Positions 10,648 to 16,141 of a stretch of DNA of 17,169 nucleotides are shown here, one piece after another. The translations under genes were made by a program, and so were the position numbers. The notes under the pieces are model-generated. The model saw only the letters and a list, made by a program, of their open reading frames with translations. It searched no databases and was not told the DNA's origin. How positions within the stretch are numbered: the stretch's first letter is position 1; every line of letters begins with the position of its first letter. The stretch lies in assembly GCA_019057375.1 (NCBI GenBank), contig DXJF01000142.1:1-17169 (forward strand). The letters run 5' to 3'. The stretch is from Candidatus Heimdallarchaeota archaeon (GTDB lineage: Archaea; Asgardarchaeota; Heimdallarchaeia; Heimdallarchaeales; Heimdallarchaeaceae).

Positions 10648-11580
10648 ATGATTAATACTGTTTTAGGACCTATTTCAGGAGATGATTTAGGAGTTACATT
10701 AATGCACGAACATATTGTAGTAAATATAATCGGAGCAGATAGTGGGGAAAGATCCTATACTATTGAGGAAGTATTGGAGTATGTTTTACCTTACTTGATT
10801 GAAGCAAAAGACAAAGGTTGTCAAACTATTGTAGAAGCCACACCTCTCGGTCTTGGAAGAGATTTAGAAGTTCTAGTCGAATGTTCTAAGAAATCTGGTC
10901 TCAACATTGTCACTTGTACTGGTGCTTGGGATGGAAGTGATGTGAAGGGATTAAGCGTTCCTGATGCCATCAAAAAAATTACCATTGATGAAATAGCTAA
11001 TGTCTGGACAAAAGAATTCGAAGAAGGTATTGATGAAACTGGGATTAAGCCTGGTTATATTAAACTAGCATTAGGCGATGAAGGAAAAATCTTTCCTTTA
11101 CAAGAGAAACTACTTCGAGCTGCAGCGAGAACCAGTAAGAAGACCGGCATGCGTATTCAATGTCACATCTATACCTCAGCATCTGTGCCTAGTGCTATCA
11201 AAATTATTGAAGAAGAAAAACTACCTTATGATCGTTTCATTTGGGTTCATGCCGATGGTCAAATGGATATGGAAAAAATTCTTGAATTTGGGAAGAAAGG
11301 AATATGGTTACAGTTTGATGGAATAGGTGTTGTTAAAGAATTCACAAAATATCCTCCTACAATAGGAAAATTGGTTGAAGAAAATCTAATTCCTCAATTG
11401 CTTTTTGGACAAGATTCTGGTTCTTTCTGGATTAAAGAGGAGGAAGAAGAATGGCCAATGAGACCTTATGCTAGGTTTTTCAACGAATTTGTGCCTTATT
11501 GTATTAAAGAAGGAGTAGAAAAAGAATTAATCAACAAAGTTATCACAGAAAACTCAAGACGTGCACTATCGCTTAAGTAG
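10648..11580 (+). CDS. Phosphotriesterase family protein (PTE/PHP-like amidohydrolase, possible lactonase)
   Basis: INTVLGPI…LGVTLMHEH start; carboxylated-Lys strand GYIKLA; His ligands in IQCH and WVHAD; Asp in LLFGQD. Confidence 0.9.
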   Translation: MINTVLGPISGDDLGVTLMHEHIVVNIIGADSGERSYTIEEVLEYVLPYLIEAKDKGCQTIVEATPLGLGRDLEVLVECSKKSGLNIVTCTGAWDGSDVKGLSVPDAIKKITIDEIANVWTKEFEEGIDETGIKPGYIKLALGDEGKIFPLQEKLLRAAARTSKKTGMRIQCHIYTSASVPSAIKIIEEEKLPYDRFIWVHADGQMDMEKILEFGKKGIWLQFDGIGVVKEFTKYPPTIGKLVEENLIPQLLFGQDSGSFWIKEEEEEWPMRPYARFFNEFVPYCIKEGVEKELINKVITENSRRALSLK

Positions 11581-11647: not shown

Positions 11648-12082
11648 CTACTCCGATATAGCGTTAAATTCTTTTTCCTCGTCGTGACACAACAGCTGAA
11701 TAACATGTTTTCCAGAGTAAATTACTGGCTGTACACCTCCCATCGACATTGACCATTGTCCTGACATATAGAAATTACTTAAACCAGGTAATCTCTTTTC
11801 AACACTAGAAGTAAAAGCATCAGCTGTTGGTAAGAAACCCATATAGGACCCTCTTTCATTGAGTGTATATCTCCAATATGTATAGGGTGTTGCTACATCA
11901 ATTATTTCAATCTTATTTTTTACCTCAGGATACCTACTCTCTAACCATTCTATTGTTCTTTCAGCTAGTTCTTTCTTTGCTTGGTTGTACTCTTTCTTGT
12001 CTTTCCTTAAAACAAACCAATATTCCCATTCGGTTTCAAAATCAACTTGGATAACTGTTTTTCCTTTTGGAGCAAAATGAGG
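11648..12082 (-). pseudogene. 3' fragment (144 aa) of a phytoene-desaturase-like NAD(P)/FAD-dependent oxidoreductase, cut off by the tnpB element
   Basis: PHFAPKGKTV…DVATPYTYWRYTLNERGSYMG…LPGLSNFYMSGQW…GGV is the typical C-terminus of this family; no N-terminal GxGxxG FAD-binding region. Confidence 0.8.
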
Positions 12083-12235
12083 ACTATGATGAGTTGTTGT
12101 CATCTTGTCATAATAGACAAGAGTTGTTGAACTTCTTTTGTAGAGGTCATTGTGGGTCTACACTCACTCTACGTGGATACATCACGTATCCTCCTACCCC
12201 GTTCACACACCTTTTAGGCAGTGCTTTCGGATCGC
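12083..12235 (-). ncRNA. Predicted omegaRNA (reRNA) scaffold overlapping the tnpB 3' end
   Basis: Minus-strand hairpins GGATAC-gtgat-GTATCC (12191-12175) and GTAGAG…CTCTAC (12172-12140), then AAAAGAAGTTCAA and TCTTGTC-tattat-GACAAGA. TnpB omegaRNAs are known to derive from the right end. Boundaries are approximate. Confidence 0.5.
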
Positions 12236-13397
12236 TTTTAACTAAGATATTATATGCAGCATTGACATCAGCATTGATTAGATGGCCTTGAGCTGAACGA
12301 AATAACCCTCGTTCTATTCTTCGTCCAACATACTTTATTCGTTTCTTGGGAAACTCATTATCCAGAAAACTACTTTTAGAAGTATATTGTTCAGGGATGA
12401 GCTCAACTTTAATTCCATGTTCAGCTGCTTTGTATTTCAACTGGTTGATAATTCTCATGAAGGGAATAGCTACAAACATCTGAGTAATTTTCTTCCAGAA
12501 ATGAACATTTTGCTTCCATTTCGCATTATATCCAATGATGACTTCATGTAAGTTTCTTTCCACCCACAAGTCTACCAAATATTTTGTGAGTTTGTGAATG
12601 GCATCTTTGAGTTTCTTCCGCCATTTCTCGCGAAGTTCATAGTACGCTGGACCATAAGTTAATTTATTTTTCTTTTTCAATTGCTTTTTTTGCTGGCTAA
12701 CATATTGTAATCTTAACTTTGTCTGTTGTTTTAAATAATACTGAATAATACTTTTTATCCCTTTCCCGTGATCCTTGATAACAATTGGTTGAGTGCCAAG
12801 GTTATCCACAAAGGTCACAAGATTGATTGACCCTAAATCTATTGCACCTTTCCTGGTAAAACGTCTTCGTTGTTTAGGTAAGAATCTCTCATAGACTAGT
12901 TCGAGAGTGTAACCCACTCGTCTAGGGACAATTCTTACTTCTTTCAGTTTTGTTCGTGAAGTCAGTCGAGTTTTGTAGTAAAAGCCTACTTTCTTAGGAA
13001 GGACTAACCAGCCATTTTGTATTTTCGCTTGCTGGTTGGTGAAGATAGCTACGACTTCCCCATTTTTTGCTTTATAGTTGGGCGGATGGGGTATAGCAAA
13101 AAACTTGCTAGGATTGCTTTTCCACTCCTTTAATGCTCGGAAATAAGCTGTCCAATTTCTGCAAAGGAACTTGAGTGTATGTTGTGCAGTGTGAGCTGGA
13201 AGCTCTCGATAACAGTCTTCTTCCTTGAGTAAGGTGTTTAAATCGTAGTACACTAGTAACTTACTCTTTTTGCTTAGATATTGCTTTATAAGATAATTTG
13301 CTCGATTATAGAGGTTTTTCACTCGATGACAAAGTGTACTCAAAGCTTGGTGATAGGAGAGTTCTATGCATTCTACTCGTAGTACTTTCGTCATCAT
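12147..13397 (-). CDS. tnpB: TnpB RNA-guided endonuclease (IS200/IS605 accessory protein) with rearranged RuvC-II and no zinc finger
   Basis: KNLYNRANY, EVRIVP, RuvC-I AIDLG (D187), VIIGY (G289), PEQYTSK (E336), RGLF, RuvC-III NADVNAAYNI (D377). Confidence 0.93.
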   Translation of the reverse strand: MMTKVLRVECIELSYHQALSTLCHRVKNLYNRANYLIKQYLSKKSKLLVYYDLNTLLKEEDCYRELPAHTAQHTLKFLCRNWTAYFRALKEWKSNPSKFFAIPHPPNYKAKNGEVVAIFTNQQAKIQNGWLVLPKKVGFYYKTRLTSRTKLKEVRIVPRRVGYTLELVYERFLPKQRRRFTRKGAIDLGSINLVTFVDNLGTQPIVIKDHGKGIKSIIQYYLKQQTKLRLQYVSQQKKQLKKKNKLTYGPAYYELREKWRKKLKDAIHKLTKYLVDLWVERNLHEVIIGYNAKWKQNVHFWKKITQMFVAIPFMRIINQLKYKAAEHGIKVELIPEQYTSKSSFLDNEFPKKRIKYVGRRIERGLFRSAQGHLINADVNAAYNILVKSDPKALPKRCVNGVGGYVMYPRRVSVDPQ

Positions 13398-13416
13398 CTT
13401 TTCCCCTAGAATTCCC

Positions 13417-13423
13417 TATAAAA
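13417..13423 (-). promoter_or_regulatory. TATA box of tnpB inside the element's left end
   Basis: Minus-strand TTTTATA 20-29 nt upstream of the tandem ATGs at 13397/13394. Confidence 0.55.
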
Positions 13424-13501
13424 GCTCCTGTAATAATTGTTCTAAAAGTGTCTTCCAAAGTGATTCATTGTACCTTTAATATGACTACGTGACGATAGAT
13501 A

Positions 13502-13660
13502 ATCATAGTTGAAGAAGCGAATCATAATATTCTCTTTTTCTTCCTCAGCAACTATAACTGGATTAGTTGTCTTAAAAAAAGTCATCCAAACTTCATCTTT
13601 GAATTCCATATTTACTCCTAAACTAACACTTACGAATGGATCAACTGTCTTCCATTTAAA
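13502..13660 (-). pseudogene. Middle fragment (53 codons) of the same oxidoreductase; its own 5' part is missing
   Basis: Manual translation FKWKTVDPFVSVSLGVNMEFKDEVWMTFFKTTNPVIVAEEEKENIMIRFFNYD matches the P-x-V-x-V-S-L-G-V…Y-D segment that precedes PxxAPxGK in this family. Not in the ORF track. Confidence 0.75.
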
Positions 13661-16141
13661 TCATGTTGCACCAGTTTGTCGTAATTCATCAGCAATATTC
13701 ATTTTCTTTATTCTTCTTAGTAATCTCATTGTTGCAAGCCATAATGCAAGTAGAGATAAGATCAAAACAATTGGCCAAGCGAACCATGGAATGGATTTAG
13801 GCATGTAGAATTGGTCTTCAAGCATATAGTCGATAGTCCACCAGTAGGTTAAATATCCAAATGGTATTGTAAGAATTAAACTAAAGAAGCTAAGTATAGC
13901 ATTTTCCCAGAAAACTATCCTCCGTATATGTCGTTTTCTAGTTCCCATTGCTTTAAATGATAAGAAATCTTGGTGTCTGTCCATGAAAGCTACATACATA
14001 GACTGAAAACTGAACAAAACTCCAATTAGAAGACCAACTCCAAGTACAATAATCATTATTCCTAACATTGCTTGCATCAAAGATAGTACTGTTTCTCTAG
14101 CTGTTTCTGATTCAATCCAGAAAGCAACATTAAACTGCTTTTCGAATTCATCTCTAATCTTATTCACATCTGCTTCTCCAGTTACAGTGAATTGAACCCC
14201 ATTTACCCAGTTATTTGGTAACCCAAAGTAAGCATTTGCTCCACTTTCTTGCAAAGCTTCGTAGGTCCAGAGCACTGAATAATCTATGAATTCTCCCACT
14301 AAACCGCCTATTTTCACTGAATAGTTACCTAAAATTCCTACTTCTATTTCATCATTTACTTCTAAATCATACTTTCCAGCTATTGCCATTCCAAGGAGAA
14401 CTGTATTATTATTTAAATCAGATTTACTGTCTAGATTACCTTCAATAATATTGAAAGAACGTAAAGTGGAATTTTCTTGATAACAAACTAACTCCGTCCA
14501 ACTAAGTAACTCTCCATTATGAATAATTTTCGTGTAAATATCAATGAAGATTTCATAATGATTGATTTCATTTAGAACCTCTATTGTGTCGTTTTTCAAA
14601 AATTGGTTAATGGCACCAAAATGAACTGGATTTTCCAGGATTATTTGTACATCATAAGTATTGTATTCTTCAAAATTTGCTGTCATTAGATCAAAGATAT
14701 TGTAAACCATTGCAAGTGAGTTAACCAAGAATATCATAGAAGTGATAAGTGCTAGAATCGTTATCAAACTTTTTTTCTTCTTAAGAAACACTTCTCTGAG
14801 TGGAATTATCATATGGATAGATCTAAACATTGGAATCCATCCAAACATCTTTTCAGCCAAAGTTTTGCTGCCTTTCTTGATTCTTGAAAAGGAAGCTACC
14901 ATTGCTTCACGAGGAGTTACAGTAGTTATTGTCCATGCACTAAGGATTGAACAAACTATACATACACTGAACGTAATAATCCCCGCATATACGAATTCCA
15001 TGGTTGGGACTGAAAGGTCAATTTGGTGAAGACCATAGATACGCCCCACAACCATTTGAGCCATAATAATTGCTAAACCATATGCTAGTGGAATTCCAAT
15101 AATAATCCCAGTTATACTAAGAATTAGAGTTAAACCTGCATAATGAAATAAGATCTTCCTCTTTGATGAGTCCATTGCTAGAAATATTCCAATGTTTTTC
15201 CGCTGAGCATATACCATTTTATTTAATGTGTTGAAAATAATTACAATACTAATGATTAGTCCAATAATTCCAAAAATTGTTCCTGCTTTATCAATTGCGC
15301 CAGCATCACCAACAAACATGTTGTATTCATCGGTCTCATCGAAAACAACAAACTTCATCGAATTGGCAGATATATTCTGGTTTCCAAAGAAATAGGATAA
15401 TGCATCTGCAGCATGAAGGGTTTGATCCTTGTTTAGCCTTTCTTCTACAGTAAACAATACTTGATTAACTACTGAATTTCCTTCAAACCTTAGTTCTTGT
15501 GCAATCTGGGTGTTTATCCAAATGACAGCAAGATTACCCATTAATGGCATTTTAGAAATTTCATCAACCATGTAAGAATAATAAGAATCTTGTGCAATCC
15601 CTTTGACAGTGAAATTAACTTCAATATCAGGAAATCTTGTTTCGATTTGATCATCAAGTGCTACGTCTTGCCCTAAAAATCCACCAGCAAAATGAGTATC
15701 TACTAAACAACTAGTATTAGATTGAAGAATATCTTTTACATCAACAATATCTGATGCTTTTTCCTCAATAACAAGTTGGTTAACTTGGTTGGGAAAATCT
15801 ATACCAAGAATTACTGCTGGAAACTTCTCTCCCTGAAACTCAATCTCAGTTAAGTATTTGATTCTTCCTTCGATATTCGATATGTTATTTTGATTCATAA
15901 ATCCAATGTCATCTCTAATCAGAGTAACATTATCTGAATCTATCGGTTCAGAGAAAGTGAATGTGCCATCGGCTACATTATAGTACTCCAGATTTAGGTC
16001 ATAAGTATTGAATAGAACAGGATGACCAGCTCTTAATCCTGCTAGAAGCATAACAGTCAGTGCAATAATAATTACAATAGAAAGTGATCTGAATTTGCTA
16101 TCCCAAATATCTCGAAAAATCTTTTTGGTTAGAATTTTCAT
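13661..16141 (-). CDS. ABC transporter permease, FtsX/MacB-like, two fused halves
   Basis: Two repeats of TM, large extracellular domain and 3 TM, with QRKNIGIFLAMDSSKRKI and RHQDFLSFKAMGTRKRHI signatures; 826 aa. Confidence 0.9.
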   Translation of the reverse strand: MKILTKKIFRDIWDSKFRSLSIVIIIALTVMLLAGLRAGHPVLFNTYDLNLEYYNVADGTFTFSEPIDSDNVTLIRDDIGFMNQNNISNIEGRIKYLTEIEFQGEKFPAVILGIDFPNQVNQLVIEEKASDIVDVKDILQSNTSCLVDTHFAGGFLGQDVALDDQIETRFPDIEVNFTVKGIAQDSYYSYMVDEISKMPLMGNLAVIWINTQIAQELRFEGNSVVNQVLFTVEERLNKDQTLHAADALSYFFGNQNISANSMKFVVFDETDEYNMFVGDAGAIDKAGTIFGIIGLIISIVIIFNTLNKMVYAQRKNIGIFLAMDSSKRKILFHYAGLTLILSITGIIIGIPLAYGLAIIMAQMVVGRIYGLHQIDLSVPTMEFVYAGIITFSVCIVCSILSAWTITTVTPREAMVASFSRIKKGSKTLAEKMFGWIPMFRSIHMIIPLREVFLKKKKSLITILALITSMIFLVNSLAMVYNIFDLMTANFEEYNTYDVQIILENPVHFGAINQFLKNDTIEVLNEINHYEIFIDIYTKIIHNGELLSWTELVCYQENSTLRSFNIIEGNLDSKSDLNNNTVLLGMAIAGKYDLEVNDEIEVGILGNYSVKIGGLVGEFIDYSVLWTYEALQESGANAYFGLPNNWVNGVQFTVTGEADVNKIRDEFEKQFNVAFWIESETARETVLSLMQAMLGIMIIVLGVGLLIGVLFSFQSMYVAFMDRHQDFLSFKAMGTRKRHIRRIVFWENAILSFFSLILTIPFGYLTYWWTIDYMLEDQFYMPKSIPWFAWPIVLILSLLALWLATMRLLRRIKKMNIADELRQTGAT

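Follow-up and report, generated by a model that had tools for sequence, protein, structure and literature searches.

A tnpB-only mobile element of 1419 bp was found inserted in a phytoene-desaturase-like oxidoreductase gene of Candidatus Heimdallarchaeota archaeon, an Asgard archaeon (GCA_019057375.1). The window, that is, the whole 17,169-nt stretch of contig DXJF01000142.1 that was analysed, belongs to the genome called G000 here; the analysis covered 25 genomes of the genus (Candidatus Heimdallarchaeota metagenome-assembled genomes, completeness 72-92%), and the nearest genome to it is G018. The element is of the OMEGA kind associated with the IS200/IS605 and IS607 families, and most likely it derives from an IS607-like element that lost its transposase. 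We assign a probability of roughly 0.82 to this reading.

The boundaries of the element were set by comparison with empty sites and with other copies. All 11 intact 500-amino-acid (aa) orthologues in other genomes of the genus have an empty site at this position, reading AAY TAY AGY CC, with Tyr-Ser-Pro (TAY AGY CCN) at the junction (one example is TTTAACTATAGTCCACATTTTGCTCC), and the aligned orthologue proteins continue through it as RFFNY-S-P/S/T. Because the orthologues carry serine (AGY) at the junction, the AGT at 12085-12083 is a host codon and the GAT at 13504-13502 is the start of the element, and the insertion point lies between the codons for Tyr355 and Ser356 of the oxidoreductase. 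On the minus strand, the left junction connects the host sequence TTCAACTAT to GATTATCTATCG (AACTAT followed by GATTATC...), and the right junction connects ...CAACTCATCAT to the host sequence AGTCCTCATTTTGC (...CATCAT followed by AGTCCTCAT), the insertion context being ...TTCAACTAT directly followed by AGTCCTCAT... The predicted empty site under these ends is AACTATAGTCC, or TTCAACTATAGTCCTCAT in a longer form.

Other copies of the element support the same boundaries. At least six further full-length, diverged copies were present in the window genome (70-84% DNA identity). Six of the own-genome copies were homologous by BLAST to the window copy as far as 12086, a seventh stopped one base earlier, and several copies, including copies in G011 and G023, matched the element from position 1 to position 1419. 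All 22 right ends that were displayed finished in CATCAT, or CATCAC in one case, and were followed by unrelated sequence. Placing the right end at 12127 instead found no support. The sole remaining ambiguity is the dinucleotide AT, which is found once before the initial GA at the left, once as the last two bases of the element at the right, and once in the 11 empty sites, and which makes a placing at 13506..12088 equivalent. Such a common AT is compatible with a 2-bp crossover, with a 2-bp duplication, or with insertion 3' of a 4-nt motif.

The original prediction had recognised that one gene is split in frame by a tnpB element and that its upstream half had escaped gene calling; both points stand, the flanking DNA aligning without gaps to residues 305-500 of the 500-aa orthologues. 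The junction, however, had been placed one codon off, with the element running from 13501 to 12083 between an Asp and a Pro codon, TATGAT or TGAT as the transposon-associated motif (TAM), CCTCATTTTGCTCCAAAAGG as the target and AACTATGATCCTCAT as the empty site. Excising 12083-13501 likewise yields an open frame of equal length. Because the shift is exactly one codon (3 nt) and the element length is unchanged, the deletion made with those ends also looked seamless and in frame. We give this anatomy next to no credence: the homologues read FNY-S-PxFAP instead of joining FNYD directly to PxFAP, so that serine stands in all 11 where aspartate would be required, and the genomic copies begin with GA at 13504 and end at 12086, with the bases after TAT varying among GA, AA and GG. 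The join had also been described as free of any duplication; the frame is indeed open, but AT stands at both junctions, and the absence of a duplication holds only down to 2 nt.

Comparison of the insertion sites showed a strict motif on one side only. The left boundary was set in 37 distinct insertion sites across the 25 genomes, where position -4 was T in 32 sites, C in four and A in one, position -3 was T in all 37, position -2 was A in all 37, and position -1 was T in 36. Position -5 was A or T, and the composition from -6 outward resembled the background (33% A, 33% T). The first two bases of the element were GA in 23 copies, AA in 13 and GG in one, and the right flank varied between copies with no preference for its first base. 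The motif next to the left end is TTAT, of which the window copy has the minority form CTAT, and its role as a TAM is predicted from these alignments. The formerly proposed TATGAT or TGAT mixes flank and element, GAT being the first three bases of the element and variable among copies. The target proposed with it was likewise off by 3 nt; the corrected target is CTAT-AGTCCTCATTTTGCTCCAAA.

By analogy with TnpB biology (PMC10711439), the predicted guide would begin with AGTCCTCATTTTGCTC, at the first base after the conserved right end. The sequence AGTCCTCATTTTGCTCCAAA has no second match in the genome when up to 3 mismatches over its 20 nt are allowed, and in the occupied site the guide match is preceded by TCAT, not by TTAT or CTAT. 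A 16-nt near-copy of the predicted guide target with 1 mismatch was observed at G000 C151:2466 (minus strand), preceded by AATAG and not by TTAT, and is probably there by chance.

The ends of the element are imperfect inverted repeats of about 30 bp. The left end aligns in register with the reverse complement of the right end from the first base, the flanking AT counted, with alignment scores of 12-22 against a shuffle mean of about 7 (standard deviation 1.5), and GTCAT occurs twice in each end. The end sequences of the family are of the form ATGAWWAGTTTTTGTCAT...ATGACAAAAACTCATCAT, and the end motif was frequent in the genus and almost absent in a reversed control. No consensus hairpin was found on either strand in 38 left-end sequences, and single-strand DNA folds of both ends were structured no better than shuffled sequences. 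The element was found in 20 of the 25 genomes, the richest of which gave 15 or more matches, and the TnpB frame was intact in about 35 of the 42 copies examined in the genus. Pairs of inverted end motifs only 328-344 bp or about 700 bp apart were also observed (G013:C41:179282-179629; G023:C171:20454-20817; G005:C48:4572-5313 and 96531-97253). These pairs probably mark derivatives of the element family that encode no protein or have lost internal sequence, and since such derivatives retain both ends, they point to mobilisation in trans. An end-motif scan of the window genome gave no pair spaced wider than one element.

To characterise the TnpB protein, we used profile searches and a family alignment. 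The NCBIfam profile NF040570 (guided_TnpB) scored 138.1 bits against a cut-off of 100, and PF01385 and PF07282 matched above their own cut-offs. A single-sequence phmmer search with the TnpB gave no match among Protein Data Bank sequences; a profile of seven own-genome copies matched ISDra2 TnpB (8h1j/8exa) at E 1e-8, and also Cas12f. In the profile alignment to ISDra2 TnpB, D187 falls on the RuvC-I aspartate, I-I-G-Y-N291 on I-I-G-T-E278, and NAD377VN on DRDEN. Conservation was evaluated in 133 sequences, comprising the window protein and 132 diverged representatives drawn from the 630 family members at E below 1e-30. D187 and G289 were invariant, D377 was present in 131 (the other two were gapped), N291 in 128 and E336 in 131. 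The canonical RuvC D-E-D triad was accordingly not found, D187 and D377 being present. E336 lies six residues before position 342, a degenerate zinc-finger site that is Cys in 74 of the 133 sequences (E336-x5-C/S342). The seven own-genome copies have no zinc-finger CxxC pairs and at most one Cys left, the partly conserved position 342. The RuvC-I motif is D187-L-G, with L, I, F or V at position 188 nearly throughout and P in two sequences.

These features have been described before in other TnpB proteins. Where the canonical Glu is lost, an alternative glutamate, "Ealt", has been reported at a distance of six residues on the N-terminal side of the first Cys position of the zinc finger (Yoon et al. 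2023, PMC10711439), and "derived" TnpBs with NADXN, RuvC-II rearrangements offset by another Glu, and branches lacking the zinc finger have also been described (Altae-Tran et al. 2023, PMC10691335). Since E336 is at the published Ealt spacing, the DRDEN position reads NADVN and the zinc finger is gone, the TnpB is a member of this published class. It resembles the Ealt/D-phi-G clade (PMC10711439) and the NADXN and RIIr clades (PMC10691335) in the D-L-G of RuvC-I, the non-acidic residue at the canonical Glu site, the Glu six residues before the zinc finger and the NADVN, and differs from them in its degenerate C4 zinc finger with at most one Cys. Fanzor2 and the cyanobacterial pro-Fanzor TnpBs share the alternative glutamate and the IS607 affinity of relatives, but they carry DPG in RuvC-I where the window family has DLG, so the Fanzor fingerprint is absent here. 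We predict the TnpB to be active. It is very unlikely to be a nuclease-dead, domesticated RNA-guided repressor of the TldR kind, as might be proposed from N291 at the position of ISDra2 E278 and from the lost zinc finger without CxxC pairs; E336 is retained at the published Ealt position (PMC10711439) across nearly the entire family, and the element that carries the gene is multicopy, has defined ends and is polymorphic for insertion.

The final ~160 nt of the element were far more conserved than the remainder, synonymous sites included. Third-codon-position entropy was 0.58-0.79 in the last 55 codons of tnpB and about 1.1-1.2 elsewhere. In a six-helix RNA model with 30 proposed pairs, 90.9% of the alignment cells were paired compared with at most 50% for slid controls, 12 of the 30 pairs changed on both sides, and the observed covariation score was reached by no shuffle. 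The terminal hairpin is formed by 12122-12116 and 12109-12103, and its 3' arm stops 17 nt short of the element end at 12086. Such a layout is as expected for an omegaRNA scaffold that ends at the transposon end and is followed by a variable guide, and we predict such an RNA here. An Rfam search at a permissive threshold over 11900-13700 matched no family, group I introns included. Upstream of tnpB, a conserved block ATATTACNGGAGCTTTTATAGG was present in 38 aligned left ends, and the TTTTATAG within it may serve as an archaeal promoter. Two further local features were observed. The sequence CAACAACTC occurs twice (12091-12099 and 12121-12129), flanking the terminal hairpin, and is subfamily-specific, missing from most other copies. 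At tnpB codons 181-240 (window positions ~12678-12857), third-position variability dips to 0.69-0.81 against about 1.15, which may stem from codon bias or from a signal within the gene at the RNA or DNA level.

The interrupted gene belongs to a family of FAD-dependent, phytoene-desaturase-like oxidoreductases of 500 aa. The 144 residues encoded beyond the element match 500-aa Asgard archaeal proteins with up to 97% identity, and the 53 codons that precede it align with the directly adjoining upstream part of these proteins, leaving no gap. In the intact loci G018 L014 and G001 L015, a permease gene is followed by a complete oxidoreductase gene, and in L014 then by a phosphotriesterase-family gene. 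Compared with L014, the window genome has lost 938 bp, from 3 nt past the permease stop to just before codon 305, with 1 nt of microhomology. No N-terminal, FAD/NAD(P)-binding part was found elsewhere in the assembly, the remaining matches being paralogues with at most 37% identity. A full-length oxidoreductase of about 500 aa was therefore not found; residues 305-500 alone remain. What had been taken for a family-typical protein of 197 aa is the C-terminal 40% of the family, and as the first 304 codons are deleted, removal of the element does not restore the gene. The host gene is dead twice, by the insertion and by the 938-bp 5' deletion. The rebuilt 196 codons encode a sequence identical to the G018 protein at 191 positions, with a ratio of non-synonymous to synonymous divergence (pN/pS) of 0.06 at a pS of 0.185. 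This low ratio indicates that most of the divergence arose under selection and that both lesions are recent. In G018, the insertion site is empty, and a fragment belonging to the element's subfamily, 93% identical, is located elsewhere. When window positions 13655-13663 were set against L014 (reverse complement, 290-310 and 1225-1250), a TTTATAG was seen next to each of the two breakpoints of the 938-bp deletion in the intact G018 locus, and the window has neither copy. TTTATAG is the TTAT target of the element plus AG, as where CTAT meets AG at the insertion. In DNA so rich in A and T it may have arisen by chance, or it may be left over from past activity of the element.

Taken together, we propose that the element would be transcribed into an omegaRNA with a scaffold that reaches to CATCAT and a guide copied from the 16-20 nt beyond it (AGTCCTCATTTTGCTC...), and that TnpB would catalyse cleavage through D187, the alternative glutamate E336 and D377. 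TnpB and its RNA could then cut the emptied site, recognised as CTAT followed by the guide match, after which the element would be copied back; the occupied site would be spared by the TCAT, in place of TTAT or CTAT, that precedes its match. A transposase acting in trans would move the element, probably a serine recombinase with its crossover at the AT dinucleotide, and an excised circle, if formed, would join CTCATCAT to GATTATC. A serine recombinase acting at AT is the enzyme we somewhat favour; some other enzyme is a good deal less probable, though a real contender, and a Y1 transposase in trans is improbable.

The affinity to IS607 rests on several likenesses. Recombination of IS607 occurs over a dinucleotide identical at both ends and target, with subterminal repeats (PMC6188088, PMC10711439), and the AT dinucleotide together with the paired GTCAT repeats fits this scheme. 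As in the IS607 family (H. pylori IS607, IS1535, ISXfa1, with a serine TnpA, TnpB and right-end RNA), the junctions and the target have 2 bp in common and nothing longer is duplicated, each end contains short subterminal repeats, and the TAM takes in the crossover dinucleotide. Relatives of the window TnpB are also encoded directly behind TnpA genes with helix-turn-helix (HTH) and Resolvase domains: among 80 loci of distant relatives (31-45% identity; cyanobacteria, Chloroflexota, Bacillota, Methanosarcina and others), an IS607-type HTH+Resolvase gene of 190-219 aa was directly upstream of tnpB in at least 12. None of the 158 flanking ORFs (open reading frames) of these loci matched Y1_Tnp, and the other 138 contained no recurrent family.

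Several observations weigh against this derivation. The usual terminal dinucleotide of IS607 elements is GG, and the family is described as having no inverted repeats (PMC6188088); a Microcoleus relative with a TnpA has such GG-type ends. The window element has AT in place of GG, imperfect inverted-repeat ends and no tnpA. The strict TT upstream of AT would also suit a target of the Y1 type, with TTAT at the left and TCAT at the right. No IS607-type TnpA is in the element and none was detected in the window genome, whose four Resolvase matches are resolvase-first; genus searches found no cognate transposase with matching ends, and the IS607-type TnpA genes of the genus have unrelated ends, with different left ends and without the GTCAT motif. 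With genomes only 72-92% complete, the absence of a transposase is weak evidence. No tnpB of the window family was found within 1.5 kb of the IS607-type TnpA loci of the genus, and Cas1, being so rare in the genus, was discarded as a candidate for the mobilising enzyme.

Serine recombinases of two other sorts were observed in these searches. The four in G000 are paralogues, each about 250 aa long and with the resolvase domain at the front (C56:5306-6061, C127:13421-14179, C16:9817-10587 and C118:7928-8713), none of which adjoins a tnpB copy; most genomes of the genus also have Resolvase-family matches. At L057:1321-3385 and L060:1-2067 (in G024 and G001, respectively), an IS607-type TnpA of 196-197 aa with MerR HTH and Resolvase domains precedes an ORF longer than 475 aa without a Pfam match in the part examined. 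About seven copies of this element in the genus have a common left end near ACC followed by GTAGTCAACTGA, and it is a different element from the tnpB one.

Alternative modes of movement were compared with the non-autonomous IS607-like reading on the same evidence. A classical IS200/IS605 element of the IS1341 group, moved as single-stranded DNA by a Y1 TnpA in trans with cleavage 3' of TTAT at the left and of TCAT at the right and without duplication, would account for the strict 4-nt left-flank motif with a similar tetranucleotide at the right end and for the covarying subterminal hairpin at the right end, and tnpB-only elements are conventionally placed in the IS200/IS605 family (PMC3627910, PMC3119063). 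The element is like the IS1341 group, with ISDra2 TnpB/omegaRNA as an example, in being tnpB-only and about 1.4 kb long, in inserting 3' of a 4-nt motif, in an omegaRNA that overlaps the 3' end of tnpB and takes its guide from the right flank, and in having diverged copies within one genome, as in haloarchaea (PMC3119063). We nevertheless consider this origin unlikely, because the Y1 TnpA (PF01797) was found in none of the 25 genus genomes by a search whose control was positive in 6 of 14 reference genomes, nor among the neighbours of the 80 relatives, and because there is no left-end hairpin on either strand and the ends are inverted repeats, which the IS200/IS605 family lacks. A slim chance remains for an undescribed kind of TnpB transposon, characterised by inverted-repeat ends, an AT junction, a strict TTAT target, genus-wide spread, short protein-less derivatives and no recognisable Y1 or cognate serine transposase.

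The inverted repeats in register with an AT on each side, and the 328-344-bp and ~700-bp derivatives retaining both ends, are also what a terminal-inverted-repeat (TIR) transposon would show if an unrecognised cut-and-paste transposase (for example DDE) made 2-bp AT target duplications and TnpB were captured cargo; capture of TnpB or Fanzor by TIR transposons is known (PMC10711439, PMC10691335). The chance of this is slighter still, as the target is conserved on one side (TT-AT at the left, random at the right), unlike the symmetric targets of such transposases, and no candidate transposase with such ends was seen. Removal at the RNA level, by an IStron-like group I intron or an archaeal bulge-helix-bulge (BHB) intron, would make the in-frame insertion harmless, and both the insert length, a multiple of three, and the ability of the two ends to pair in a read-through RNA would agree with it. 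It is hardly believable: no Rfam family matched over the region, only ~107 nt precede tnpB, a BHB requires pairing between the opening bases of the intron and the beginning of exon 2, but the right flanks are unrelated among copies, and the host gene is without its first 304 codons in any case.

The coordinates of all features are summarised in the table below. On the minus strand, the end of the permease gene is followed by 159 nt without a gene call, the tnpB ORF and an ORF of 151 aa, and then comes the convergent phosphotriesterase-family gene. The ATG at 12103 that begins the 151-aa ORF lies inside the element, as had been predicted. This start codon (12101-12103) is within the 3' arm of the terminal hairpin, and the ORF reads from there into the host fragment. 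In copy C124, the corresponding frame meets TAA after two codons, which indicates that the fusion ORF is an accident of the window copy.

Table. Features of the tnpB element, of the interrupted oxidoreductase gene and of the neighbouring genes, in window coordinates.
Feature	Position	Strand	Basis or remark
Mobile element, 1419 bp including one copy of the common AT at the right end	12086..13504	-	Empty sites, BLAST limits, full-length copies, end alignments
Left-end inverted repeat, ATGAWWAG TTTTTGTCAT NTN GTCAT ATTA type, with two GTCAT subterminal repeats	13475..13506	-	In-register end alignment
TAM-like left flank CTAT (family consensus TTAT)	13505..13508	-	Flank logo, 37 sites; last two bases AT recur as the final two of the element
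TATA-like box (archaeal) TTTTATAG, ~20-25 nt upstream of tnpB start	13416..13423	-	Within conserved block
tnpB, 416 aa	12147..13397	-	Pfam OrfB_IS605 (PF01385), Cas12f1-like_TNB (PF07282), NF040570 guided_TnpB
Predicted omegaRNA (right-end RNA, reRNA) scaffold overlapping tnpB 3' end; 5' limit approximate	12086..12246	-	Covariation, codon-position entropy
Host sequence AGTCCTCATTTTGCTCCAAA, putatively copied as guide	12066..12085	-	Starts at first base after conserved right end
Oxidoreductase fragment A, codons 305-355 (KWKTVDPF...RFFNY)	13505..13657	-	tblastn with 500-aa orthologue P0002, 98% identity
Oxidoreductase fragment B, codons 356-500 and stop (SPHFAPKG...AISE, stop)	11648..12085	-	Protein alignment to orthologues
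Junction of 938-bp deletion; lost: intergenic spacer and codons 1-304	13658..13660	-	Comparison with G018 L014 and G001 L015
ORF of 151 aa	12103-11648	-	Start inside element
FtsX/MacB-type ABC permease gene, intact (context)	13661..16141	-	Pfam FtsX and MacB_PCD
Phosphotriesterase-family gene, convergent with pseudogene (context)	10648..11580	+	Pfam PTE; synteny retained in G018

The insertion itself is an event of an ordinary kind, a non-autonomous TnpB element of a known protein class in a decaying accessory gene, and for the host it documents only the recent death of that oxidoreductase gene. For Asgard-archaeal TnpB, the corrected ends replace the prediction of TGAT with CCTCAT... by a testable one of TTAT or CTAT with AGTCCTCATTTTGCTC..., and natural TAM-guide pairs of this kind are a starting point for biochemical tests. 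If the element did represent an undescribed kind of transposon, it would have to move either by an enzyme not yet recognised or solely through copying that depends on TnpB. The family as a whole is a compact example for the long-standing question of how elements with tnpB alone are mobilised: its intact copies are many and diverged, its ends are inverted repeats, its junction is AT, and no Y1 transposase was found in the 25 genomes.

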